DNA of 64,000 nt from a virus, in the IMG/VR virus record IMGVR_UViG_3300049460_000150, positions 15,113 through 79,112 of that record. One strand, 5' to 3'. Shown here in pieces: positions 4,641-28,686 of this stretch (position 1 is its first letter; each line of letters begins with the position of its first letter). Made by a program: the position numbers and the translations under genes. The notes under the pieces are model-generated. The model was given only the letters and a program-made list of their open reading frames with translations. It searched no databases and was not told the DNA's origin.

Positions 4641-6122
4641 CTACTTGACCTTGTTGGCCCCTGCATTGTTGTCACGGGCCGGTGCGCCCTTCTCCTTGGT
4701 CTTGGCGGCGCGCTCGGTGGGGCTGTTGCCCTGGTCCGTGGTGGAGCTGGAGGGCGCGGCACCCGTGGCTGGGTCCAGGAAGTTCGTACCGCTCAGGACC
4801 GGAGCGCCTGGAGGTGGCAAACGACCATACATTTCGAGGTGATATTCTTCGTCAGTGATGATGCCTAAACTGAGGTCGTTTTTCAGGCGCGTGGCCTTCA
4901 TGGATTTGTTAGGCTCCAGCTCCGTTTCAGGGCGCAGTTCCACGTCGTCAAAAGTGCATTCAACATAGCTCTCCGAACCTTGCAGGCGCAGGCCCAGTGT
5001 GAAAGCTTGGCTCAGGAGGTCGGCGATTGGCTTGTTGATGGCCTGGGCGTTGAGCGAGAAAACACGCGCTTCAACAGTCGCGGTATTCACGCCGGTCGTG
5101 CCACGGCCAATGATCGTCGCCATCGTGCGCAAACCAGCTTGGTTCTGCGCGTTCAAAGTGTTGATGATGGAGTCGATGTTCAAGGTCATGGCCGACTTCT
5201 CGTTCATGGTCTTGGCTTCCACCGCGTCGTAGTGGACGAAAGCTTGATCCGACTTGATCGAGTTAATCTTCGACGTTATACCAGCCAGAGCCGAGTCCAA
5301 GAACTGCCGCGTTTTCACGGGGTCGATCTTAACGTCTGGCGGTGCGCTTTTCATCACTACTTCTTCCAGCACTTTAACGTCCAGGCGCGGGAAGCCGGTG
5401 ATGTTCATGATGCGGTACAAATCGTTGATGACTTGTTGACGCGCCGCGATGGTATTAATCGCGCTGACAAACGGACTGTAGGTATAGACGTTTGTTGGGT
5501 CCTTGCGGAACCATGTGCAAAAGAACTGCGGGATGTCGAGCGAGATGATATCGCCGCTCAATGCGCGCTGCTGCGGAGTGAACTGGGCGGGGGCCTTCTC
5601 AAACCACTCGATCTTTCCCATGTCTACTTGCCGCAATTCCATCGGCAAAAACTCCTTGCTGATGACCAGCTCTGCGCCGATACCTCCGCGCAGCAAAATC
5701 ATGTAGCGCAGGTCCTCCGCGATAGCCTTCATCGACTTGACGTTTTTGTAGCCTTTGGAATAGTCGAAACGCTTGGTCAGAGCATTGACAAGTTGCGCCA
5801 TCATTTCCTGGCCTGGACGATCCACCTGTCCGTTGACATCCTTGACCAGATAACGGAAGGGGGTATCCGCCACGGTTAAGAAGGCGTTGACGGACGCGCT
5901 CATGTCCGGGTCCGTACGGAACAAATCCTGGAGCAGCGCACGGCTGTCCAGGCTTGTCCGGCTGGTGAAGATGTCGGTGAGGTGTTCCCGGTAGGCCGGG
6001 AGCGACAAGATGTTGTTGGTAGCCGAAGGGTTAAAGGTCGAGGTGGTTGCTACGCCTTTGTCGTTCCCCTTCTTGCCTGGGAGTAGGACCTTTAACCGAT
6101 TAACGAGTGAGTTGGTTGCCAT
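4641..6122 (-). CDS. portal protein
   Basis: 493 aa directly after the terminase large subunit; typical portal size and helical composition. Confidence 0.8.
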   Translation of the reverse strand: MATNSLVNRLKVLLPGKKGNDKGVATTSTFNPSATNNILSLPAYREHLTDIFTSRTSLDSRALLQDLFRTDPDMSASVNAFLTVADTPFRYLVKDVNGQVDRPGQEMMAQLVNALTKRFDYSKGYKNVKSMKAIAEDLRYMILLRGGIGAELVISKEFLPMELRQVDMGKIEWFEKAPAQFTPQQRALSGDIISLDIPQFFCTWFRKDPTNVYTYSPFVSAINTIAARQQVINDLYRIMNITGFPRLDVKVLEEVVMKSAPPDVKIDPVKTRQFLDSALAGITSKINSIKSDQAFVHYDAVEAKTMNEKSAMTLNIDSIINTLNAQNQAGLRTMATIIGRGTTGVNTATVEARVFSLNAQAINKPIADLLSQAFTLGLRLQGSESYVECTFDDVELRPETELEPNKSMKATRLKNDLSLGIITDEEYHLEMYGRLPPPGAPVLSGTNFLDPATGAAPSSSTTDQGNSPTERAAKTKEKGAPARDNNAGANKVK

Positions 6123-7879
6123 GTGGGGGATACCTTATTGGAGCTGGAAGAACCAGCGTGGATACCGATCAATTTCGAATCATTGTACCCGCCAAAGACG
6201 GCACCAGCAATTGCAATAGAGGTTTGCACCGCCGAATTCAGCCCCATGTCAAGCGCGATGTAGGCCACAGCCGTGAGCATGAAGCCCGCCGCGTGGAAGA
6301 TGTGGTCTTGCGAGTCGAGCTTGCGCCAGACGGCAGGCTGTTCCGGCTGTTCGTCGCGCACCATATTGCGCAAATGCGTGACGATATCGTTCTCCAATGT
6401 CCCGTATCCGCTGAAGGAAATGTATTGGCCGCGAATAGCCGCTGCAACCTTATCCAGAAGCATGGTTCTATTCGCCTGCAAATACAGCACTTTTCCGAGC
6501 GGGTCTTTGACGACATTAATCTCCTTGTCACCACGGTATTCGCAAGGCAGGATTCGACCGTGGGTTGCCTCACGAATTGCATCAGCCGTATTGCTCTCAG
6601 GATGTCGGTCGCAAAGACCGCCCATTACGTTGTAGGCGTTGCACAGCTCTTTGGCTCGATCCACGATGCGGCCAACAGGGCAGGTTTCGACCATGACCAC
6701 TTGCATGGCTTCGATGCTATAACCCTGGCCGACAGTGATCGTGCAAAAGTGGCCCATGTCGATGCCTACCCAGGTCGGCACATGCTTGTTGATCGTTGGT
6801 ATCTGCGCCATGCCGGTGATGCACGCCTTGATGGAGGCTTCTGAGATGCGCGCCGTGGAGCTATCTTCAGGCTCGCCCAGGATGGTGTTTTTGAAGCGGC
6901 GAATGGTCTGCCCCTTCTTCTTCATATCGACCAGCTCAAGGATCACGTCGCGTGGTGGGCGAGTGGACACGGAAAACGGGTTCACGCGACGGCCCCGTGC
7001 ATACTGGCGGCTTGGGTATTTGGCGACCCATGCGCGGTTCGATTCACGGCCCAGGTCCAGCGGGGCGCGGCAGCGCTCGCAGCAGACGTAAGAAGCCTCC
7101 AGATCGATCTTGAAATGTTCGATGGTGCTTTGGTCCAGTTCCGTCAGCGACTCCAGGCCCGATGGGAGGCCAGGGAGGTGGATGAACTTTTCTTCGAAAA
7201 GAGGGAACTGCCAGTGGTTGCAGGCGTCACACTTAATCAGGTACTCCATCTGGTCGCTGTTTTCGTACAGCGCATGGATGCCATATTGCGTGAAAGTCGG
7301 CGTACTAAAGTAGCGCTTGATCTTCCAGTCGGAATTCAGCAGACGCGAGCTGAAAAGGCCAGCGATGTCCATGTCGTGCAAATCGTACTCATCCAGGAAC
7401 ACGAAGTCGGCGTCGGTGGAGGTGGCATCGCCCTCCTTGGAACCCGTCATATATAAGAAGGACTGATTGATCTGCAAAAGCTGGATCGAACGCACCGGCT
7501 TGTTGCTGCTGGTGGTCTGCTTATTAAATATGTCAGTGTCCTCCACCATGGGCATCACGCGGGTCTGCACGTTCTTCTTGCGCATGTCGTCGTCTGGGTA
7601 GGCGTAGATGCCTTTGGTGTTGCGATGACGCGCCAGGAAGGCCAGGGCGGCGCGCTGGAAAATCTCCGACACACCCACCTGGGAAGGCTTGATCGTCGCC
7701 GAGTTGCGGTGGTCGTCGTCAACCAGGGCGCGCTGGAAGGGGTAGCGGTTGAACGAGAAGGGCTTGCCCTTCAAGGTCGTGTTTTTGCACAGCCATTCGC
7801 TGGTCAGCATGTCCGACGCTTCGATAGCAAAGCGGCTGACAAACAGGTTGTAGAGTTCTTGGGAGTATTGATTAGCCAT
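6092..7879 (-). CDS. terL: terminase large subunit (lambda GpA-like)
   Basis: FPFQ-like adenine motif (YPFQ), KPSQVGVSE Walker A variant, VFLDEYD Walker B, STPT coupling motif, CDAC...CERC zinc ribbon, VGIDMG nuclease motif, C-terminal DHIFHA; start taken as ATG 7879. Confidence 0.9.
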   Translation of the reverse strand: MANQYSQELYNLFVSRFAIEASDMLTSEWLCKNTTLKGKPFSFNRYPFQRALVDDDHRNSATIKPSQVGVSEIFQRAALAFLARHRNTKGIYAYPDDDMRKKNVQTRVMPMVEDTDIFNKQTTSSNKPVRSIQLLQINQSFLYMTGSKEGDATSTDADFVFLDEYDLHDMDIAGLFSSRLLNSDWKIKRYFSTPTFTQYGIHALYENSDQMEYLIKCDACNHWQFPLFEEKFIHLPGLPSGLESLTELDQSTIEHFKIDLEASYVCCERCRAPLDLGRESNRAWVAKYPSRQYARGRRVNPFSVSTRPPRDVILELVDMKKKGQTIRRFKNTILGEPEDSSTARISEASIKACITGMAQIPTINKHVPTWVGIDMGHFCTITVGQGYSIEAMQVVMVETCPVGRIVDRAKELCNAYNVMGGLCDRHPESNTADAIREATHGRILPCEYRGDKEINVVKDPLGKVLYLQANRTMLLDKVAAAIRGQYISFSGYGTLENDIVTHLRNMVRDEQPEQPAVWRKLDSQDHIFHAAGFMLTAVAYIALDMGLNSAVQTSIAIAGAVFGGYNDSKLIGIHAGSSSSNKVSPTWQPTHSLIG

Positions 7880-7940
7880 GGCGTCGATTATAGCAGCGAA
7901 AAATATCTCATAAATGAGAGGTTTGGGACGAAAAAGCATA

Positions 7941-7957
7941 GGATGATACTATCATCC
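7941..7957. promoter_or_regulatory. 17-bp palindromic operator GGATGATA-C-TATCATCC in the divergent terL/primase intergenic region
   Basis: perfect 8+1+8 inverted repeat; identical copy at 14592-14608. Confidence 0.7.
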
Positions 7958-7960
7958 ATA

Positions 7961-7989
7961 TTGCGCCTAGGGTGCCTGTAACGTACACT
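7961..7989 (+). promoter_or_regulatory. sigma70-like promoter for the 8020/primase operon
   Basis: TTGCGC-17 nt-TACACT. Confidence 0.5.
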
Positions 7990-8019
7990 CTTTTCTCCAA
8001 CTAAATAGGCGAGAAAAAC

Positions 8020-8550
8020 GTGTCCAATCCCAACGATTACCTCTACCCCGATGTGAGTGTCCAGAACCTCCGCTTTGTTGAGGTCATGCGCCGCCTGCAT
8101 AAAGAACACCCAGACTATTTCACGAACCAGCGCTGCCCGTACCCCAACGAGGTCGAACGCTACTTCCGCTCCTGGTTCGACACGTCCGTGCGCCCTGCTG
8201 GCCGCCCTGCTGGCCGCGATATGGGGGCCGACTACGGCGACTCCTACGACCCTCGCGCCGACGCCCTGCTGGGCGAGGACAAATGGGACGCTCTATATAG
8301 AGAGGTGGTCGAGCTGTACGCCTCCCTGAAAAACGCCAAACCATCGGCTGGCGACTCGTCCGAAAGCATGGCCTACTTCCGCACGGCAACGGGCCTGCTG
8401 GATAAGCTGGTCGGCCACCAGGAACGGTGCCTGGGCATCAAGCAGGTTGCCGAGTTCCACAAAGTAGTGCTGGACATCATGGAAGGCGTGCTTTCCGAAG
8501 ACCAGCGCAACAAGGTCATGTCCCTGCTTAAAGATTCCATCAAGAACTGA
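8020..8550 (+). CDS. hypothetical helical protein (candidate terminase small subunit or replication accessory factor)
   Basis: 176 aa, GTG start, divergent from terL and upstream of the primase gene; function unsupported. Confidence 0.6.
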   Translation: MSNPNDYLYPDVSVQNLRFVEVMRRLHKEHPDYFTNQRCPYPNEVERYFRSWFDTSVRPAGRPAGRDMGADYGDSYDPRADALLGEDKWDALYREVVELYASLKNAKPSAGDSSESMAYFRTATGLLDKLVGHQERCLGIKQVAEFHKVVLDIMEGVLSEDQRNKVMSLLKDSIKN

Positions 8551-8566
8551 TACTAGAAAGAGCCTT

Positions 8567-11008
8567 ATGTCTATCGAAACCCCTACCATCTTCGCCTCCA
8601 CCGCCCCTGCGTATTTCGCTGCTGGAATGTCCGTAATTCCACTGCACGTCCGCGAGAAGAAACCAGTGCCAAACGACTGGTCCATGTTCCACGATTTGTT
8701 GCCTGCCAAGGAGCTGCAAAACCAGTGGTTGGCTGGCAATCCAAACTCCAACATTGGTCTGGTCCTGGGCCGTCAGTCCGGCGTGACCATGATCGACATC
8801 GACACGGACGATGAAAAAATCTACTCCGCCATCATGGGTTGTCTGCCTCATTCGCCATGGCATCGTCGTGGTAAAAAAGGCATGATGATCGCCTTCAAAT
8901 TCAGCGGACATAAGACCTTCCGAATCAAGAATATGTCTGGTCAAACCATGGTCGAGTGTTTGTCGTCCAGGACCCAGTGCGTTTTACCCCCATCGATCCA
9001 CCCAGAAACGCAGCAGCCATACACGTCAAACTGCGAGCTGATAGATGTCGTCGGAAATCTGCACAATCTGCCCACCGATATCGAAGATATGTTACGCACG
9101 GCCATCAAGGCTGCGGGCGTGGACCTTTCTCACTCCGGCTGGAGCCGTGTTACTGACTACGTTTCGAGCGGGTCGCGGGACACGACGCTGACCGAGATGG
9201 CTGGCCTCTTCGCTTTCGCCGTTGTTCGTGGCGAAAGGACGCTGAAGGAAGCCATTGGTATGCTCCAGGCGTATTACAACGAGTATATCGAGACGGTTGC
9301 AGGCGACCAGATCGATGTTGAAAAGCACATTGAGAATCTGATTAAGTTCCTGCACCGCGACGTGCTGGATAAGGGCAAAGTCCTGCCCAAAGGGTGGGAC
9401 GAAGGGTACAGCGCCGAAGATTTGACAAAAATGGGCGTGACTCTGGGCGTGGACCAGACCGAGTGGGCCTTCGATGAAGTCCGCAACTATCTGAAGACCT
9501 GTTTTGAGACCTACGGCGCGGAAGGCAAGGAGCGCGGAGATGCGGTCGAGATCGTCTTGTCACGCATTGCCAAATCCAAGACCCTTTCCAAGATCGATGA
9601 AGACCGGCTGTTGCAGTATATCGTTGATGTCTCAGGTTTGGGCGTCAAGATCAGCACGTTGCGGGCGCGTCTGAAGGAGCTGCGCGCTGGAACTGTGCAG
9701 GGCAACGACCACAGCGAAATCGCCAGGGCTGTTCTGGCAGATTTGAGCCAGTACAATCTGGTGAGGTTCCACACCGGGAAGTTGATGAAGTGGGCAGGCT
9801 CCCACTGGGTCGAAATGGAGATGCACGCCATCAAGAGTTTGGTGTCGAACTCTTACGGTCACTTAGCCGCTTGCAAAAAGGCCAGCGACATCAACGGTAT
9901 CCTCCAAATTCTGATGTATATCGCCGAGCAGGGGATTCAGAAAAAAGTCGTCAAAGGAATTAACTTCGCCAACGGGTTTTTGACGCAGGAATTGAAGCTG
10001 ATTCCCCATGAGCCAGACTTCGGCATGACTTATACGATGCCATTCCGCTACGTTCCAGAGGAAGCTGGACGCTTCCCGATGTTCGACGCCTTCCTTGCGC
10101 GGAGTTGGGGCGCGGACAAGGACTATATTGACAAGGTTATGGCGCTCCAAGAGGCCATGGCGGTGACGTTGTTCGGTCTCGGCTCCATGTTTCAGCGTGC
10201 GATTCTGCTGCACGGTGCGCCGAAATCGGGCAAGACCCAGTTGTTGCGCATCATCGAGACCCTTGTACCAGCAGAAGCACGTACTTCGGTGCCGCCAAAC
10301 CACTGGGATGACAAGTACATGCCAGGGCAGATGGTCGGCAAGATTTTGAACATCTGCGGCGAGCTGTCCGACAAGAAGCTTATCGACGGCCAATCCTTCA
10401 AGGACATCGTTGACGGGAGTGAGCGCAGTGGTCAGCACAAATATGGTGCCATTTTCAGCTTCCGTCCTTTGCTGACTCACTGGTTCGCCTCGAACCACAT
10501 TCCGCGCACGGCGGATACGTCCAGCGGTTTCATTCGTCGGTGGCTGTTTTTGACGTTCCATTTCCCGGTACAAGATGGGGCCATTGTTGCAGACATTGGC
10601 GACATCATTGCAGCCCAGGAGCGCGAGGCCATTGTATCGTGGGCGGCGCAAGCAATGCCGCGTCTGTTGAAGAAGGGCGATTACACCACGCCGGACAGTC
10701 ACCGGATGCTAGTAAATGAGTTCGCAAATATGAACAACTCTGTCCGTTACTACATGCGTGAAAGTGGAAAGATTACTTTCGACCACGCGGGCCACGCGGC
10801 TAGTAAGCTTTTTGCCACAGAAATGTCGCTGTACAACTCCTACTGGGCTTTCTGTGCTGGCGCTGGTGGGCTGAAGCCGGTGGGCCAGCAACGTTTCCGG
10901 GCGATCATGCGTGAGCTGCAACCAGAGCTTGGCTTTAAGCTCGAAGTAGCCCAGACAACGCTGGGCGGAACCGAGGCAGTCTACCGTGGGATGTCTATAC
11001 ACGTATAG
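8567..11008 (+). CDS. bifunctional primase-polymerase fused to D5-like SF3 helicase
   Basis: N-terminal Prim-Pol motifs (NIGLVLG, IDIDTD, VLPPSIHP), PriCT-like GSRDTTL, D5_N INFANG, Walker A GAPKSGKT, FASNHIP, FIRRW. Confidence 0.9.
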   Translation: MSIETPTIFASTAPAYFAAGMSVIPLHVREKKPVPNDWSMFHDLLPAKELQNQWLAGNPNSNIGLVLGRQSGVTMIDIDTDDEKIYSAIMGCLPHSPWHRRGKKGMMIAFKFSGHKTFRIKNMSGQTMVECLSSRTQCVLPPSIHPETQQPYTSNCELIDVVGNLHNLPTDIEDMLRTAIKAAGVDLSHSGWSRVTDYVSSGSRDTTLTEMAGLFAFAVVRGERTLKEAIGMLQAYYNEYIETVAGDQIDVEKHIENLIKFLHRDVLDKGKVLPKGWDEGYSAEDLTKMGVTLGVDQTEWAFDEVRNYLKTCFETYGAEGKERGDAVEIVLSRIAKSKTLSKIDEDRLLQYIVDVSGLGVKISTLRARLKELRAGTVQGNDHSEIARAVLADLSQYNLVRFHTGKLMKWAGSHWVEMEMHAIKSLVSNSYGHLAACKKASDINGILQILMYIAEQGIQKKVVKGINFANGFLTQELKLIPHEPDFGMTYTMPFRYVPEEAGRFPMFDAFLARSWGADKDYIDKVMALQEAMAVTLFGLGSMFQRAILLHGAPKSGKTQLLRIIETLVPAEARTSVPPNHWDDKYMPGQMVGKILNICGELSDKKLIDGQSFKDIVDGSERSGQHKYGAIFSFRPLLTHWFASNHIPRTADTSSGFIRRWLFLTFHFPVQDGAIVADIGDIIAAQEREAIVSWAAQAMPRLLKKGDYTTPDSHRMLVNEFANMNNSVRYYMRESGKITFDHAGHAASKLFATEMSLYNSYWAFCAGAGGLKPVGQQRFRAIMRELQPELGFKLEVAQTTLGGTEAVYRGMSIHV

Positions 11009-11030
11009 AGGTCGGAAATGTTGCAGTTTT

Positions 11031-11052
11031 AGCCCGCTTTGGCGGGCTTTTT
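11031..11052 (+). terminator. intrinsic terminator
   Basis: AGCCCGC-TTTG-GCGGGCT followed by a T run. Confidence 0.8.
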
Positions 11053-11116
11053 CTTTGGGTAAAAGAAAGGTTACTTTCATGTACGAAAGGTTGAGCAATT
11101 TTCAATCAAAATACCC

Positions 11117-11144
11117 TTGACTTTGAGTGTGGATATGGTACATT
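11117..11144 (+). promoter_or_regulatory. sigma70-like promoter for the 11247 gene
   Basis: TTGACT-16 nt-TACATT with extended -10 TG. Confidence 0.6.
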
Positions 11145-11246
11145 GAAGGCTCACTCACTAGCAGAGTAATAGTAATGGTCAAAAACAGGCCACTTGTAGG
11201 GGGTCGTATCGCCACCCTTTAATCCACTTTTCCATAGGGGAAAATC

Positions 11247-12209
11247 ATGAGCACTTCTAGCATTCAACCAAGCCCACGCAAACCTTCCAAATCCACGAAG
11301 GCATCCGCGCTCCAAATTCCAGTTCCATCGACCCCAGCAAAAGGTCGTCGTAGTCAGGTATCACTCCCAGGCGAGGCACCGACCGGGGCAAAGCGTCCAA
11401 GCCCAGGCCAGCGCTCGCCCCGACTCAGTGGTATGCACGACCTGTCCTTCAACACATGCGTTAAAACGCTGTCTGGCATCACGATCTCGCGCCAGGGGCT
11501 TTTGCAACTGGAACTGGCCGTTGGTCTCGCCGTGTTCCTGGACTTCGGAGTTGCAGATCGTGCGGCCAAGACCATGCTGCAAGAAGTCTACTCAAAAGCG
11601 GGCTATGATTGTGCTGATTCGGCGGCCCCACACTATAAGACGGTCAATCGCCGGATTCAGGCCAGTGCGGCGCTGTTCGGCAAGATCAGCCTGGAGGTCC
11701 TAAACCACTGGGTAGACGGCAAGAAAGAGGGCAAGCTTTTGCAGGCCATCGCCCAGGAGATTGTGGAGTTTGGTTTCAAGTCCATGGACGACGTTCTGGA
11801 CCACGTTGGGCGCGCAAGCAATCGCGGGCCTGCCGTGGAGGGCCAGGAGGTTGGTGTCGCGGAGGCCGGTTCGGGCACTCGCGGCAGGAAGGCAAATACG
11901 GCCTTCGATATCCAGGTCGGAGACGACGTGGTTGTGCATCTGCCGCGCAAGCTGACGGAGGCAAATCTTGTCGAGCTGGCAACCAAAATCATGGCGCTGG
12001 CCCAGGTGATCCACGACCAGGAGGCTGCTGCTAAGGCCCAGGAGGCGGCAGACGCAGCAGCGGGTCTGATAGCACCGCTGGAGGCCCAGGACGGCGCTCA
12101 GGCGGTTCTGGGCGGTCCAGAGGGCGAGGCTCCCCCGGCAGGCGCGGGTGTTGGCCCGCAGGACGTTGCCGGTGACGTAGTGGTTGTCGGGGGCCGGAAA
12201 CGGCACTAA
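11247..12209 (+). CDS. unknown protein, paralogue A (shares a core domain with 12612-13436)
   Basis: 320 aa; core LELAV...AGY.C....YKTVNRR...F.KI...W...GF...DDVLD.VG is shared with the 12612 ORF; has its own promoter and terminator. Confidence 0.75.
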   Translation: MSTSSIQPSPRKPSKSTKASALQIPVPSTPAKGRRSQVSLPGEAPTGAKRPSPGQRSPRLSGMHDLSFNTCVKTLSGITISRQGLLQLELAVGLAVFLDFGVADRAAKTMLQEVYSKAGYDCADSAAPHYKTVNRRIQASAALFGKISLEVLNHWVDGKKEGKLLQAIAQEIVEFGFKSMDDVLDHVGRASNRGPAVEGQEVGVAEAGSGTRGRKANTAFDIQVGDDVVVHLPRKLTEANLVELATKIMALAQVIHDQEAAAKAQEAADAAAGLIAPLEAQDGAQAVLGGPEGEAPPAGAGVGPQDVAGDVVVVGGRKRH

Positions 12210-12237
12210 ACTGAAGACGCTTAGAGAGCGTTGGTTT

Positions 12238-12269
12238 GCCGGAGGGGTCTAGGCCCCTTCGGCTTTTTT
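12238..12269 (+). terminator. intrinsic terminator after paralogue A
   Basis: GCCGGAGGGGT-CTAG-GCCCCTTCGGC followed by T6. Confidence 0.75.
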
Positions 12270-12362
12270 ACGTTTATGGGCAGGAAAACTTGGGCGGAAT
12301 GTGCGGCAAGAAGGTGGGCAAGAAGGTGGACCTCTTTCTGGTAAGGGAGCGGCACCGTTTAA

Positions 12363-12406
12363 GGGGCCTGGAGAGGGGGCCTGGAGAGGGGGCCTGGAGA
12401 GGGGGC
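12363..12406 (+). repeat. 13-bp G-rich tandem repeat (GGGGGCCTGGAGA x3)
   Basis: seen directly; preceded by GCAAGAAGGTGG x2 near 12306-12329. Confidence 0.85.
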
Positions 12407-12611
12407 GGGATCAGGCCCGTTATATGGTGCAAAATGGTTGCAAAAATTTTTCAAAATTTTTTCCAAAACGTGAGACCTCTATACCCGACCCAAGCCCTCG
12501 CCACAAGCTCAAAAAAGCCCTATACTCTTAGTCATGCAGTCAGGTAAAGCAAGGTCCCGGAAACGGGACCACGCAAGGCCCCTGCTAACCCTATCAATCT
12601 GATATAAGGAA

Positions 12612-13436
12612 ATGACCATGAAAACCGCTGTCCAATCCACGCAAGGCCAAGGCACCACTACGTCCATCGACTATACCGTCCTGACGCTGGCAATCGCAAA
12701 CGCTGCACTGTCGCGCCGCGCCGCGCTGCACATGGAGCTGGCCGTATCGCTGATTCACTTCACGCAAGAAACGGGCGGCACTGACGCGACCGGCAAGGCC
12801 AACATGAAGGCCATCTACCATGGCGCGGGTTATCTGTGCATGGCTAAGAGTGACCGCGATTATAAAACGGTTAATCGTCGCTTGAATGCCATGGCTAAAG
12901 TGTTCGATAAAATCGGCTCCAGCACGGTCAACGAATGGATCGAGAACAAAGGCGATACAGATAGTATGCTCGCCTACGTGCAAACTGAATTGCTGGCGTA
13001 TGGCTTCGATACGTTGGATGATGTACTTGATTATGTTGGCGTAGAAACTAACAGAACCCGTGCGCCGCGCCAACCAGCCGCGCCGGTAGCAATCACGGTC
13101 CCGGAAACGGGACCAGCACCGGCAGCAGCAGCAGCGCCAGCGGTAGCAGTTCTGCCAACGTTCGACGCGGCACAAGTGCGCGCTGAAATGATGGCTAACA
13201 TGTCACCCGATGCGATCCGTGAATTCTGCGCGCAAATGCTGGCCGATGTCGCTGCACTGGAGCAAGCACAGATTGACGCTGAAACGGCAGCAGCAGCAGC
13301 GCCAGCAGCAGCAGCAGCAGCAGCAGCACCGGCAGCAGTCGTGCCGATGAATAGCAAGGCACGCAAACAGGCAAAGAAACAGGCGCATATCGCGGCGCAG
13401 CAGCAGCAGCAGCAGCAGCAGCGCGCAGCAGCATAA
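12612..13436 (+). CDS. unknown protein, paralogue B, with poly-Ala/poly-Gln tail
   Basis: 274 aa, AAGGA RBS; same core as 11247; 18-bp element upstream, inside and downstream. Confidence 0.8.
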   Translation: MTMKTAVQSTQGQGTTTSIDYTVLTLAIANAALSRRAALHMELAVSLIHFTQETGGTDATGKANMKAIYHGAGYLCMAKSDRDYKTVNRRLNAMAKVFDKIGSSTVNEWIENKGDTDSMLAYVQTELLAYGFDTLDDVLDYVGVETNRTRAPRQPAAPVAITVPETGPAPAAAAAPAVAVLPTFDAAQVRAEMMANMSPDAIREFCAQMLADVAALEQAQIDAETAAAAAPAAAAAAAAPAAVVPMNSKARKQAKKQAHIAAQQQQQQQQRAAA

Positions 13437-13517
13437 TGTGGCACGGTAGCGGTCCCGGAAACGGGACCGCATCGCAAGTAAATAACGGTCCCGTTAACGG
13501 GACAGGCACCGGAGGAA

Positions 13518-13640
13518 ATGTACATGCAATGGATCGTGTCTGAATTGGCCGTTTGGCCGCTGTCGCATTTTGTCGGGCTGGCGCTGGATGTCGCCGTGAT
13601 CGTTTGGCTGTGGAAGTCCACGCCTATCCGTTTGAAATAA
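13518..13640 (+). CDS. 40-aa hydrophobic membrane peptide (below the ORF-track cutoff)
   Basis: GGAGGA RBS; MYMQWIVSELAVWPLSHFVGLALDVAVIVWLWKSTPIRLK; bracketed by 18-bp elements. Confidence 0.7.
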   Translation: MYMQWIVSELAVWPLSHFVGLALDVAVIVWLWKSTPIRLK

Positions 13641-13674
13641 CGGTCCCGTTTCCTGGACCTTCACCGGAGGATTT

Positions 13675-13920
13675 ATGTCTGAATTCAACATGGCCGCATG
13701 GCTGAAAAAGCGTTTGGCTGATCCATCGCTTTCGACCACGGAGTATTTACATCACGAGCGTGCTTTGCAGGACATCGAATTTCGCCAGCGTGTGCTGGAC
13801 GCGGAGTATGCCCACAAGGAACGTATGCTGGCGCTGGAGGCCGAACAGGCTGATTTCCAGCGCCGCATCGGCGCGGCACATGCCAAATTGGACGCGCTCG
13901 GCGCTCCGCGTTTTTCGTGA
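13675..13920 (+). CDS. small coiled-coil hypothetical protein
   Basis: GGAGGA RBS, 81 aa, bracketed by 18-bp elements. Confidence 0.75.
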   Translation: MSEFNMAAWLKKRLADPSLSTTEYLHHERALQDIEFRQRVLDAEYAHKERMLALEAEQADFQRRIGAAHAKLDALGAPRFS

Positions 13921-13968
13921 ACAAAACGGTCCCGTTTCCGGGACCGGCACCGTTGAAAGGGTTTCCAA

Positions 13969-14349
13969 ATGGCTGGCATGAGCGACAATCCCCTCGTGGG
14001 GGACTACACCAAGGGCATTTCCAAGGGTCGGCAATACTTCGTGGAGTTGCGCACGAGGTTCTTCCTTGAGAAAGCTGACCTGAAACACGTCACTTTGGAC
14101 CTCCAAATGGGGCTGTTCAAGGAGGCAAAGGCGTTCACTGACGCTTTCGTGAAGCTGAATCACCTAGACCGTTTTGGGCCGGTGCCGGTCCCGAAAACGG
14201 GACCGAAAAGCGTTGCTTTGCGTTCAACTCCATTGGCGCAGAAGCAACGAGTTATCCACAGGCCGACTTCGACAATTGCGAAAAACGCAAGCCTGAAAGT
14301 TTCTGCGTTGCAAGACATTAGGTTGCTTTACATGCAACTTTGTGGATAA
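13969..14349 (+). CDS. hypothetical protein (3' end overlaps DnaA boxes)
   Basis: 126 aa after an 18-bp element; stop codon lies within the DnaA box at 14341. Confidence 0.5.
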   Translation: MAGMSDNPLVGDYTKGISKGRQYFVELRTRFFLEKADLKHVTLDLQMGLFKEAKAFTDAFVKLNHLDRFGPVPVPKTGPKSVALRSTPLAQKQRVIHRPTSTIAKNASLKVSALQDIRLLYMQLCG

Positions 14350-14472
14350 CTCGCGTTTTTCTGTGGATAGTTTTTCTGGCCCTGTGAATAACTTATTTTT
14401 GCCTAAAAAATAGGCAGAAAACAGCGTTTTTTGTGGATAAGTCGGTGGATAACGCTAAAAAGCTGTGGATAA
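14252..14472. promoter_or_regulatory. cluster of seven DnaA boxes
   Basis: TTATCCACA 14252(+); TGTGGATAA 14341, 14432, 14464; TGTGGATAG 14362; TGTGAATAA 14383; GGTGGATAA 14444 (all six on the minus strand). Confidence 0.85.
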
Positions 14473-14476
14473 ACCG

Positions 14477-15086
14477 GCTTGATAGTCTCATCCACTTTCG
14501 GGGCGAGCGCCTGAAATTTCGGGTTTTCTGTAACGAATGATGGGCCGAATGGTCTAGACCATTTGTGGTCATTTTGACAGGATTTTTGGGAGGATGATAC
14601 TATCATCCCCCCATTTGCTTGCACATCGGACGAGAAAATGCAAGCGCTAAATCTGCCTAAAAATGAGGCAAATCGTTGTGCAGCGCAATATTTTGGCCTT
14701 TGGATGATAGTCTCATCCCCTTTTGGGGGCCAGGACAGGCACCGGGCGATGGCGAGGTCCCGGAAACGGGACCGGAGCGGCGGGTAGGAACCACAGGGAG
14801 GGGATGCAGACGTGATGGCGATGAAATGGGCTTGGCTTTGCGCTCGATTTTGCGCTCGCTTTTGCGCTCGCTTTTGCGCTCGCTTTTGCGCTCGATTTCC
14901 GATCACTTTTGCCTTCGCTTTTGCGCTTGGTTTGTGGTAAGGGGACGGCACCGGCTTTTCCTTTCCTTTCGTTATCTTCTCTCTTTTTCTAATTACTCTT
15001 TAGGGTTGAAGGGGGGATGATAGTATAAAAGGGTAAAGAGAAAAGAGTTACTTTTAAGAAATAAAGAGAGGATGAGACTATCATCT
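14477..15086. repeat. 17-bp palindrome family GGATGAKA-S-TMTCATCC (iteron/operator-like)
   Basis: 14477-14493, 14592-14608, 14702-14718, 15070-15086, plus a half-site at 15015; sister copy at 7941. Confidence 0.8.
14836..14930 (+). repeat. 12-bp tandem repeat TTTTGCGCTCG(C/A) x5 plus degenerate copies
   Basis: seen directly. Confidence 0.9.
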
Positions 15087-15208
15087 AAAAAATTCTGGAC
15101 CCCTGCCGGTCCCGGTCCCGTCGCCAACTAATGCCCAATTTTTAGGCAGTGTTTTCGGTGCCTTTTCCGACCCCAAAAAGTTGCCGAAAAGTGCATAAAA
15201 TGCCCCTC

Positions 15209-15245
15209 AAATTTGCCTAAAATTTGCCTAAAACTTGCCTAAAAA
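15209..15245 (+). repeat. 11-bp tandem repeat AAATTTGCCTA x3
   Basis: seen directly; one-helical-turn period. Confidence 0.8.
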
Positions 15246-15701
15246 TTGAGCATTTCTCGTGCTGCCGATCCACATCCTGATCCACATCCACATCCAAAAT
15301 CTGCACCAATTTTCGTTAAGGGGAACATCCATGCGCAACGTCATTCCGACCCAAAAGCGGTCATCACTTTTAGCCTCCCTCACCCGCCCAATTTCCATAC
15401 CCGCCTGGGTGCCCATTTTCATCACCCTCACCAACATGGTTTCCATCACCATTTTGGTCATCGCCAACCGAGACATCTTCGCAGCATGGTTCCACGGCTA
15501 AATGCAAGGGGTAAAGCTGCCGCCCTCCCACTGCCCGGTCCCGTTTCCGGGACCCGCCACAACCCTGGCCCCAGCATGGACCCCCAAAGCGATCAGAATC
15601 GCCCACAGGGCGTTTTTGGCTTATAATGAGTACCGTTCCACCACTGGCTCCATAATCGCCACCTGAGCGGTTTTAGAGCCTTCTAACAAAGGAGTGACAA
15701 A

Positions 15702-16049
15702 ATGACATCCCACCACACTACCCCGGCCCCGGCCCCGGCCCCGGCCCGGGACGAGACCGTTTCCAACCCCCGCGCCCACCACCTCGGCCATCGCCTTTAC
15801 CTCTCCCCTTTGGCGGCGATTAAATCCATACTCCCGGCCACCACTTTTTACGCGCCCAATTTCGCCTCCAAATGCCAAGACACGCTCATGGAAATGACCG
15901 AACCATTCGATGGTGACGATTTGTTCGTCGCCCTCAACCTCCTGGCCCTCTCGGAAGGCATCCTGCTTTATCGCTTTTACGAGCCGCAAATTACCACCCT
16001 CAATCACGCCGTCACCATCATCAAATACTACGCAATAAGGAAGCCTTAA
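15702..16049 (+). CDS. hypothetical early protein
   Basis: GGAGTGACAAAATG start signal; first gene after the control region. Confidence 0.65.
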   Translation: MTSHHTTPAPAPAPARDETVSNPRAHHLGHRLYLSPLAAIKSILPATTFYAPNFASKCQDTLMEMTEPFDGDDLFVALNLLALSEGILLYRFYEPQITTLNHAVTIIKYYAIRKP

Positions 16050-28180: not shown

Positions 28181-28686
28181 AGCCAGCTAAGACCAAGCGC
28201 GACGAGTTTTTCAAGGACCTGTCGGCGCAAAAGCGCGTGGATAACGGGACGATCCGCGCCCTCAAAATCTACTTCAACAATCGCCAGCACTCACCCAATA
28301 AGGAGCGCTACGAGCGCTTGAACCTGCTGCCCACGCTCGGCCCATATCGCCTGGAGATGCAGTGCGAGGCCGACTACATGCACCTGTTGACCAAAGCGTG
28401 TTACATCAACCCAGACTCCAAACATGAGGTATGGCGCAACACGGAATTCACGCGCTTCTTCGGCACCCAGCAACGCAACATCATGAACGACCGCCACAGC
28501 CTGTATCTGGTGGACTTCCAAGACGAGCAAACGGACGGCAGCGCCAAGTGGGAACGGCGCAACCATCCAGACTGCGAAGCAGGCTTCTTTGTTCCCATTT
28601 ATGAGATGCGTGACAGCAGTGGCAATTCGTTCCAATTTATCATCCGCTCGTGGCAGCAGGGCGGCGACCGTATCACCATCGTTTAA
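28177..28686 (+). CDS. hypothetical protein
   Basis: ATGA coupling. Confidence 0.6.
   Translation: MKPAKTKRDEFFKDLSAQKRVDNGTIRALKIYFNNRQHSPNKERYERLNLLPTLGPYRLEMQCEADYMHLLTKACYINPDSKHEVWRNTEFTRFFGTQQRNIMNDRHSLYLVDFQDEQTDGSAKWERRNHPDCEAGFFVPIYEMRDSSGNSFQFIIRSWQQGGDRITIV

Follow-up and report, generated by a model that had tools for sequence, protein, structure and literature searches.

The stretch of DNA analysed here (hereafter the window) comprises 64,000 nucleotides (nt), bases 15113-79112, of the 79,112-bp IMG/VR virus record IMGVR_UViG_3300049460_000150. In it, the gene for the large terminase, terL, diverges from a rightward operon formed by open reading frame (ORF) 8020 and a primase-helicase gene, and a large gene-free region (14350-15700) lies further to the right. 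These two places are linked by a 17-bp palindrome with 8-1-8 symmetry, GGATGATACTATCATCC, which is the subject of this analysis. Exact copies are found at 7941-7957 and at 14592-14608, accompanied by variants at 14702 (1-2 mismatches), 15070 (2-3) and 14477 (3), and by a half-site at 15015. A first-pass annotation of the sequence had reported these sites, the start-to-start distances of 115 and 110 bp between the first three copies of the gene-free region and the position of the 7941 copy between divergent terL and replication genes; all were confirmed, the last by the gene calls. At up to three mismatches the 17-mer has nine strand-counted matches, against 0.02 expected in shuffled sequence, and there is no further copy anywhere in the 79,112-bp genome, including the approximately 15 kb outside the window. 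Similarly, nine of the 12 GGATGAKA half-sites in the genome fall in the two gene-free regions, the one at 15015 among them. The 127-bp "terminal repeat" of the record is an assembly overlap. The features discussed below are collected in Table 1.

Table 1. Features of the two regions that carry the palindrome and of the genes beside them (window coordinates).
Feature	Position	Strand	Remarks
Large terminase gene terL	6092-7879	-	First gene of the leftward structural operon; PHROG 675, E 2.6e-111
Second palindrome TCTCATAAATGAGA	7906-7919		On the terL side of the 17-mer, over the -35 position of the terL TATAAT
Exact 17-bp palindrome	7941-7957		Divergent terL/ORF 8020 intergenic region; centre 7949
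Weak promoter-like TTGCGC-N17-TACACT	7961-7989	+	ORF 8020/primase operon; 7 of 12 consensus positions
ORF 8020 (ORFx, PHROG 30421)	8020-8550	+	Family-wide primase partner; candidate binding protein, ~170 aa
Primase-helicase gene	8567-11008	+	Prim-Pol, D5_N and SF3-helicase, by domain matches
P0017-family protein	11433-12209	+	Candidate binding protein; paralogue at 12612-13436
DnaA-box-like 9-mer cluster	14252-14472		Four perfect TTATCCACA plus near-matches
Variant copy GCTTGATAGTCTCATCC	14477-14493		3 mismatches; 4 nt past the last DnaA box
Sigma-70-like promoter TTGACA-N18-TACTAT with TG extension	14574-14603	+	10 of 12 consensus positions; reads rightwards towards early genes
Exact copy	14592-14608		Within a 27-bp imperfect palindrome (14587-14613)
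Variant copy GGATGATAGTCTCATCC	14702-14718		24-nt direct repeat in common with 14480-14503
Half-site GGGGGGATGATAGTAT	15011-15026		With its G-run, a perfect inverted copy of 14597-14612
AT- and purine-rich core with AAAGGGTAA box	15027-15069		43 bp; 26% GC against 56% for the genome
Variant copy GGATGAGACTATCATCT, rightmost site	15070-15086		Homologous to the copy at 15412 in the closest relative

An 8-1-8 dyad present in two exact copies, three variants and one half-site has the symmetry and copy structure that were looked for in a repressor-operator set. All three variant halves carry the same T-to-G change (GGATGAGA), uncompensated on the opposite arm, and the hairpin energies of the palindromes are weak (-0.4 to -8.2 kcal/mol). 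Because of these two properties, it is the double-stranded half-site sequence, and no hairpin, that appears to be under selection, which would be expected if a dimeric protein binds the DNA. A compensated stable stem, the mark of a terminator or of a structured RNA or DNA hairpin, was not found, as the variant halves break the pairing, and a search of Rfam gave no credible match.

Relatives of the phage were identified with a primase profile search, which retrieved 192 related IMG/VR contigs; a megablast search of positions 7000-16000 against the phage collection and a single-protein primase search in viral contigs gave no match. Cultured relatives are Xylophilus phage Lumi, Achromobacter phages JWF and 2-1 and Caulobacter phage Seuss, siphoviruses of ~80 kb with long direct terminal repeats. 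In all 80 loci kept for comparison terL (minus strand) diverges from the primase gene (plus strand), and an ORFx is detectable between them in most. The closest relative, L189 (primase 65%, terL 58% and ORFx 38% identical), retains the core ATGATA(C/G)TATCAT with different outer bases: one copy, at 9182 of its own sequence, precedes the ORFx-primase operon and three more (15070, 15105 and 15412) lie in the gene-free region, 2.3-3.4 kb past the primase gene. At the same two places Lumi has a different motif, GAAGTATTTAACAGTTC, which occurs three times in its 82.8 kb; Seuss has AATTCGTATATGGAATT there, and JWF and 2-1 have TTTATCNTATAAA. In each of six further loci (L185, L209, L218, L222, L223 and L175) there is a distinct palindrome that, within ±10 kb, is confined to these places, and two more (L152 and L169) show the same pattern by a looser count. 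The lineage motifs are mostly, not always, palindromic. In a crude shuffle test, which misses short or degenerate motifs such as that of JWF, z reached at least 3 in ~12 of 45 distinct loci, about a quarter; the DNA of EAb13 is too AT-rich for a clear shared motif. The conserved pattern TGCCTAAAAANGAGGCAAAT has one match elsewhere, which is coding and unrelated.

The link between the two locations, which the first-pass annotation had drawn from a single genome, is therefore found in relatives too, where both locations carry motifs and only the sequence of the motif changes with the lineage. From these comparisons there appears to be a family-wide, lineage-specific palindrome code, common to the promoter of the primase operon and to the distal control or repeat-end region. 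Motifs that hold their place but differ in sequence from lineage to lineage suggest that the phages encode a recognition protein which co-evolves with these sites. The alternative that the palindrome is the box of a host transcription factor, with a motif that varies because hosts vary, is highly improbable. Motif classes do follow broad host groups, the two Achromobacter phages JWF and 2-1 having one motif, and no regulator of phage origin was found; nevertheless, the recruitment of a different host factor to these two positions in each of many lineages is unlikely. When 185,579 species genomes were scanned for exact matches, a test of low power given that only exact matches were covered and the host is not identified, at least 120 hit stretches were returned, distributed over all phyla, against ~139 expected by chance; the matches listed were nearly all on separate contigs, with no taxon clearly enriched. 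The first-pass annotation had named a known host regulator box recurring across the host genome as one observation that would overturn its view, and these chance-level matches reveal no such regulon. To our knowledge, the motif is unlike the consensus boxes of LexA, Fur or CtrA. The viral contigs with an exact palindrome, 17 single matches, have no proteins in common with this phage. The conserved two-place link thus points to a phage factor over a host box, and a phage-encoded factor is what the first-pass annotation had proposed.

The upstream copy ends 3 nt before the TTGCGC at 7961, which is followed after 17 nt by TACACT (7984). The promoter of ORF 8020 that the first-pass annotation placed here does exist at that distance from the palindrome, but with only the partial consensus match given in Table 1, and a consensus promoter scan did not list the site. 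The centre of the palindrome lies 35 nt from TACACT and 71 nt from the start of ORF 8020. Its distance to the next -10 element is nearly the same in L189 (36 nt, to TGnTATAGT) and in Lumi (34 nt, to TACAAT). The start of ORFx is 47-82 nt away from the proximal upstream copy in most lineages, while terL lies at anything from 40 to 450 nt. Because the ORFx and -10 spacings hold while the terL distance varies, the upstream site is considered to belong to the ORFx-primase operon rather than to terL. Such a placement relative to the operon start, as far as can be judged from most lineages, fits autoregulation by a product of the operon.

On the other side of the upstream copy, terL has a TATAAT (7892-7887) 7 nt before its ATG. 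This hexamer is a perfect -10 match and no Shine-Dalgarno sequence is present; in Lumi (L022, 5816-5844) a TAGAAT is found at 8 nt, which together suggests a leaderless terL mRNA in part of the phage family. In JWF, on the other hand, terL is preceded by a 26-nt leader that contains a hairpin. This JWF (L024) hairpin, CCTGGTTGCCAGG, occurs in the terL 5' leader (~6330-6350) and also in the 5' region of gp002 (~1370-1385), a gene encoded in the terminal repeat; it is degenerate in 2-1 and may be an RNA-level control element. The second palindrome of Table 1 is kept in L189 (9108). Its wider family, TC(T/C)CATAAATG(A/G)GA, has 12 strand-counted matches at up to three mismatches, against 2.9 expected, with copies at 28593, 35670 and 41865 in or beside coding sequence.

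In the gene-free region, the exact copy at 14592 overlaps a TTGACA-N18-TGnTACTAT promoter and supplies its TGnTACTAT. The promoter-like site is among the few best consensus sites in 79 kb, and a perfect -35 at usable spacing for any of the copies has an estimated chance of ~0.7%. Overlap of a copy with a predicted promoter is seen at 14592, where the -10 is covered, while the other copies are without a convincing -35. L189 has the same arrangement, TTGCTC-N16-TACTAT, over its 15105 copy. It could be argued that no dedicated protein is needed and that the palindrome is simply an overlapping divergent pair of extended -10 elements (TGATACTAT and TGATAGTAT) for the host RNA polymerase. The core reads TGnTAnTAT on both strands, the copy at 14592 has its perfect -35, and the motif of JWF includes TATAAA and TATGAT. 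We nonetheless regard this explanation as very unlikely: conservation exceeds the 11-bp extended -10 pair, extending over ATGATA-S-TATCAT in L189 and GGATG...CATCC within the window, most copies have no -35, and nothing resembling a -10 hexamer is present in the motifs of Lumi, Seuss, L218, L223 and L185.

The flanks of individual copies are also partly conserved. The right half and flank of the 14477 copy are kept in JWF (GTCTCATCC followed by GCGCCTGAAATTTYGGGT), and the 15070 copy has an A/T run, a leftward terminator-like hairpin and AACTAAT in common with its counterpart at 15412 in L189. The hairpin is GC-rich and followed by a T-run on the minus strand, to the right of the rightmost palindrome (window 15097-15112, L189 15455-15470); it is terminator-like for leftward transcription, though the genes to its right appear to be read rightwards.

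The rightmost module (15015-15086) has a fixed order: half-site, AAAGGGTAA, purine-rich core of 26% GC, full site. This layout is common to L189 and recognisable in Lumi and Seuss, and it places sites next to an AT-rich segment that could unwind, since 15015 and 15070 flank the core, as their counterparts do in L189 and Seuss. The cultured relatives give this module a further meaning. The terminal repeat of Lumi measures 2,298 bp, as determined with PhageTerm (PMC9959647), and that of Seuss 1,748 bp, as determined with PAUSE (PMC4591317); the records of JWF and 2-1 give 1,466 and 1,542 bp. In all four phages the repeat lies downstream of the primase gene. In Lumi, JWF and 2-1 the repeat ends distally within or next to an extensive gene-free stretch that precedes the early genes and corresponds to 14350-15700 in the window; in Seuss the gap measures only ~135 bp. 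The Lumi motif begins 7 nt beyond the PhageTerm boundary (80497), on its outer side; a second copy follows 28 nt further on, and the repeat itself contains a degenerate one. In Seuss, the boundary determined with PAUSE (83391) has the motif 4 nt to its outside and, on the other side of a core of 25% GC, an inverted copy 78 nt to its inside. The box AAAGGGT(A/G)A is kept in L189 (15357) and in Lumi, where the PhageTerm boundary falls inside it. By comparison with these phages, the distal boundary of the terminal repeat is predicted at 15027-15069 in the window. In Lumi (L022/L023) both PhageTerm boundaries (2292-2300 and 80493-80501) lie inside the same heptamer, AGGGTGA, a candidate cleavage motif on this sequence coincidence. 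A second AGGGTRA box that might mark the other repeat boundary was not found in the window, which has AAAGGGTAA at 15028 and none near 11-14 kb.

A packaging signal is accordingly the first alternative raised by these ends: the palindromes would be recognition sites of the small terminase in a family with long terminal repeats of the SPO1 type, the sites at 15015 and 15070 positioning the cut at the distal end, the copy at 7941 giving feedback on the terL and ORF 8020 promoters, and ORF 8020 being the small terminase. We consider it possible but on balance doubtful. The distances of 7 and 4 nt to the read-derived repeat ends of Lumi and Seuss, where the cleavage point is flanked by sites, speak for it, and so does the succession of site, AT-rich core and site in the window and L189. 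In addition, no small terminase has been annotated in the phage family, and ORF 8020 is located beside terL and encodes a protein of ~170 aa, helical and with weak atlas leads to HTH_23/HTH_28-type families. The layout is reminiscent of the pac site of SPP1 (pacL/pacR, bound by the small terminase G1P) and of lambda cosB, in which sites flank the cleavage point across an A-rich bendable segment. Those systems differ from the present one, however, in that here there are long exact terminal repeats (with an SPO1-like terL) and no known small terminase, several kb separate the main cluster from terL, and the promoter of the primase operon has an additional site. Moreover, in the records of JWF and 2-1 the motif copies are more than 270 bp from the repeat boundary and do not flank it, one of the two repeat boundaries has no motif, the upstream copy keeps its distance to ORFx and not to terL, and three of the window copies are 300-530 bp from the predicted end, one of them overlapping a promoter -10. 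The more specific proposal that the palindromes define the distal repeat ends, with ORF 8020, invariably a neighbour of terL and transcribed together with the primase gene, as a new kind of small terminase feeding back on the replication operon, is rather unlikely; if true, one DNA code would serve both genome-end formation and the expression of replication genes.

The first-pass annotation had described the distal region as origin-like and had pointed to initiators that bind both origin iterons and their own promoter. In the corresponding model, palindromes within an origin (14350-15100) and at the promoter of the operon itself (7941) would be bound by the primase-helicase or by a partner, with SF3 helicase rings assembling head to head beside the AT-rich core, in a manner resembling Rep autoregulation or the ori/crr system of P4. 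Sites are indeed present on both sides of the primase operon, the upstream one being tied to the operon start in most lineages, and the same site therefore stands at the promoter of the presumed initiator gene. An AT-rich core lies between sites, with DnaA boxes and 11-bp TTGCCTAAAAN repeats nearby in the window, and the helicase is of the SF3/D5 type with a winged-helix-like C-terminal tail. P4, with its alpha primase-helicase, and iteron plasmids likewise have lineage-specific sites adjoining an AT-rich segment, on both sides of a P4-family primase-helicase gene in the first case, and one site at the promoter of the operon itself. Their sites, on the other hand, are short direct or dispersed iterons, while those described here are 8-1-8 palindromes at irregular spacing instead of phased direct iterons, and the primase-helicase is only a putative binder, whose conserved C-terminal helix does not follow the motif.

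The origin label itself is weakened by the relatives. L189 keeps the palindromes in a gene-free region that has no DnaA box at up to one mismatch and no exact TGCCTAAAA, and no DnaA boxes were seen by eye in the regions of Lumi and JWF; the DnaA cluster is probably specific to the lineage of the window. Because L189 keeps the palindromes without the cluster, these do not seem to depend on a DnaA-type origin. Cumulative GC skew has its maximum in this region and not its minimum, by convention a terminus rather than an origin, so that neither the skew nor conserved host-factor boxes support origin function, and the module holds the repeat end in Lumi and Seuss. For these reasons, initiator sites are an unlikely explanation.

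The gene-free region contains several other repeats. Palindromes of the TGCCTAAAAA(N)GAGGCA type are found in the window at 14399-14416, 14653-14673, 15132-15148 and 15209-15252, together with three tandem copies of the 11-bp repeat mentioned above. A 20-mer at 14654 and the copy just before the first early gene are kept in Lumi (80898 and 80126) and absent from L189. Tandem arrays of 6-12 bp units, specific to each phage, occur at 14837-14933 in the window (GCTTTTGCGCTC), at 15550-15640 in L189 (GGTCCCGCTACT) and at 79540-79590 in JWF (L025; CCGCTC).

Several proteins were considered as binders. ORF 8020 is the family-wide partner of the primase, and its nearest named atlas clusters are helix-turn-helix (HTH) families, with weak values of only 0.86-0.87. 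No Pfam family matched it, and its structural model is all-helical with low confidence (pLDDT 59). A fold search returned its own family only, a PDB profile search gave spurious coiled-coil-like matches, and profile searches in viral, metagenome and genome contigs gave no match; 15 homologues, 52-81% identical, came mostly from Logan. A conserved helix of ORF 8020 (MAYFRTAT) and a C-terminal segment of the primase, its putative recognition segment, were compared with the motifs across lineages, and neither follows the motif class. ORF 34426, with homologues in JWF, 2-1 and Lumi, has a weak HTH_31 match (E 0.039). These were the three candidates of the first-pass annotation, and none could be shown to bind DNA. 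A further candidate is the P0017-family protein, whose N-terminal helical domain is modelled at pLDDT >90 and has no clear neighbour among solved structures (best Z 5.7). A homologue in L189 retains an invariant YKTVNRR segment, and Lumi_003 gives only a faint match, to the C-terminal part of the P0017-family paralogues. The two tandem paralogues of the window (11433-12209 and 12612-13436) are 35% identical over 133 aa, and the called gene start is at ~11433, not 11247. A scan of 68 plus-strand ORFs matched 12 Pfam families, none of them an integrase, ParA or ParB family. Seven family members (L152, L169, L173, L174, L212, L216 and L220) come from IMG isolate-genome records, as separate contigs of ~56-82 kb, which may be a sign that some phages of the family are maintained in culture as episomes or in a carrier state.

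At somewhat short of even probability, the explanation we favour is that the palindromes are operator sites of one phage-encoded, sequence-specific dimeric protein. Such a protein would tie the promoter of ORF 8020 and the primase (7941) to the early-promoter and repeat-end region (14477-15086). At 14592, its binding would mask the -10 of the strong rightward promoter and shut that promoter off; at 7941, ~47 nt upstream of the predicted start of the operon, it would tune the operon and perhaps terL. As the sites at 15015 and 15070 bracket the AT-rich core where the repeats of relatives end, the same protein may also mark that end. The sites, their restriction to two regions and their constant placement with a sequence that varies by lineage are observed, whereas binding, its dimer stoichiometry, repression or activation and the identity of the protein are inferred. 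The operator, terminase and initiator readings are not mutually exclusive. In this form the interpretation of the first-pass annotation is partly supported, its coupling of the two regions by a phage factor being retained, while the "replication/packaging switch" is conjecture.

Similar operator systems are known from other phages. The OL and OR regions of lambda, bound by CI and Cro, also have 17-bp sites with twofold symmetry about a central base pair, in several non-identical copies distributed over two control regions kilobases apart and with at least one copy over a promoter -10. Here, in contrast, neither a CI- or Cro-like HTH gene nor any sign of lysogeny genes was found, the copies stand at distances of 55-115 bp instead of forming tight triplets, and one cluster is at the repeat end of relatives. 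Protein p4 of phi29 offers another parallel: a small protein of a lytic phage acts on inverted repeats between divergent promoters and switches temporal classes. The p4 sites are confined to one region, however, whereas here there is a further occurrence 6.6 kb away, and it is the replication operon, not the late one, to which the upstream copy keeps its distance.

Several observations weigh against operator sites. The -35 of the ORF 8020 promoter is poor, and the Lumi promoter homologous to the one at 14574 (TTGACAGG...) does not have the Lumi motif at its -10. The geometry is different in Seuss, where just ~18 nt separate the upstream copy from the start of ORFx, and the promoter calls in relatives are consensus guesses for phages whose hosts are not identified. 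The closeness of 4-7 nt to the repeat ends in Lumi and Seuss would be more directly explained by a role in packaging. Finally, no regulator was found: there was no HTH or ribbon-helix-helix Pfam family among the 68 plus-strand ORFs at E≤0.001, and no transcriptional regulator among the best 25 of 41 matched PHROG families.

The arrangement appears to be more general than could be seen from one sequence alone. At least 192 IMG/VR contigs belong to this phage family, among whose members are Achromobacter and Acinetobacter phages of relevance to therapy (JWF, 2-1 and the TCUP2199/EAb13 group); it is without a described regulator, small terminase, origin or packaging signal. A lineage-specific DNA code at two conserved positions provides an experimental handle on the binding protein. 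The identity of this protein would reveal how early transcription and the expression of replication genes are timed, and where the terminal repeat is cut. The pattern also offers a way to predict repeat ends in metagenomic assemblies, in which long repeats collapse.

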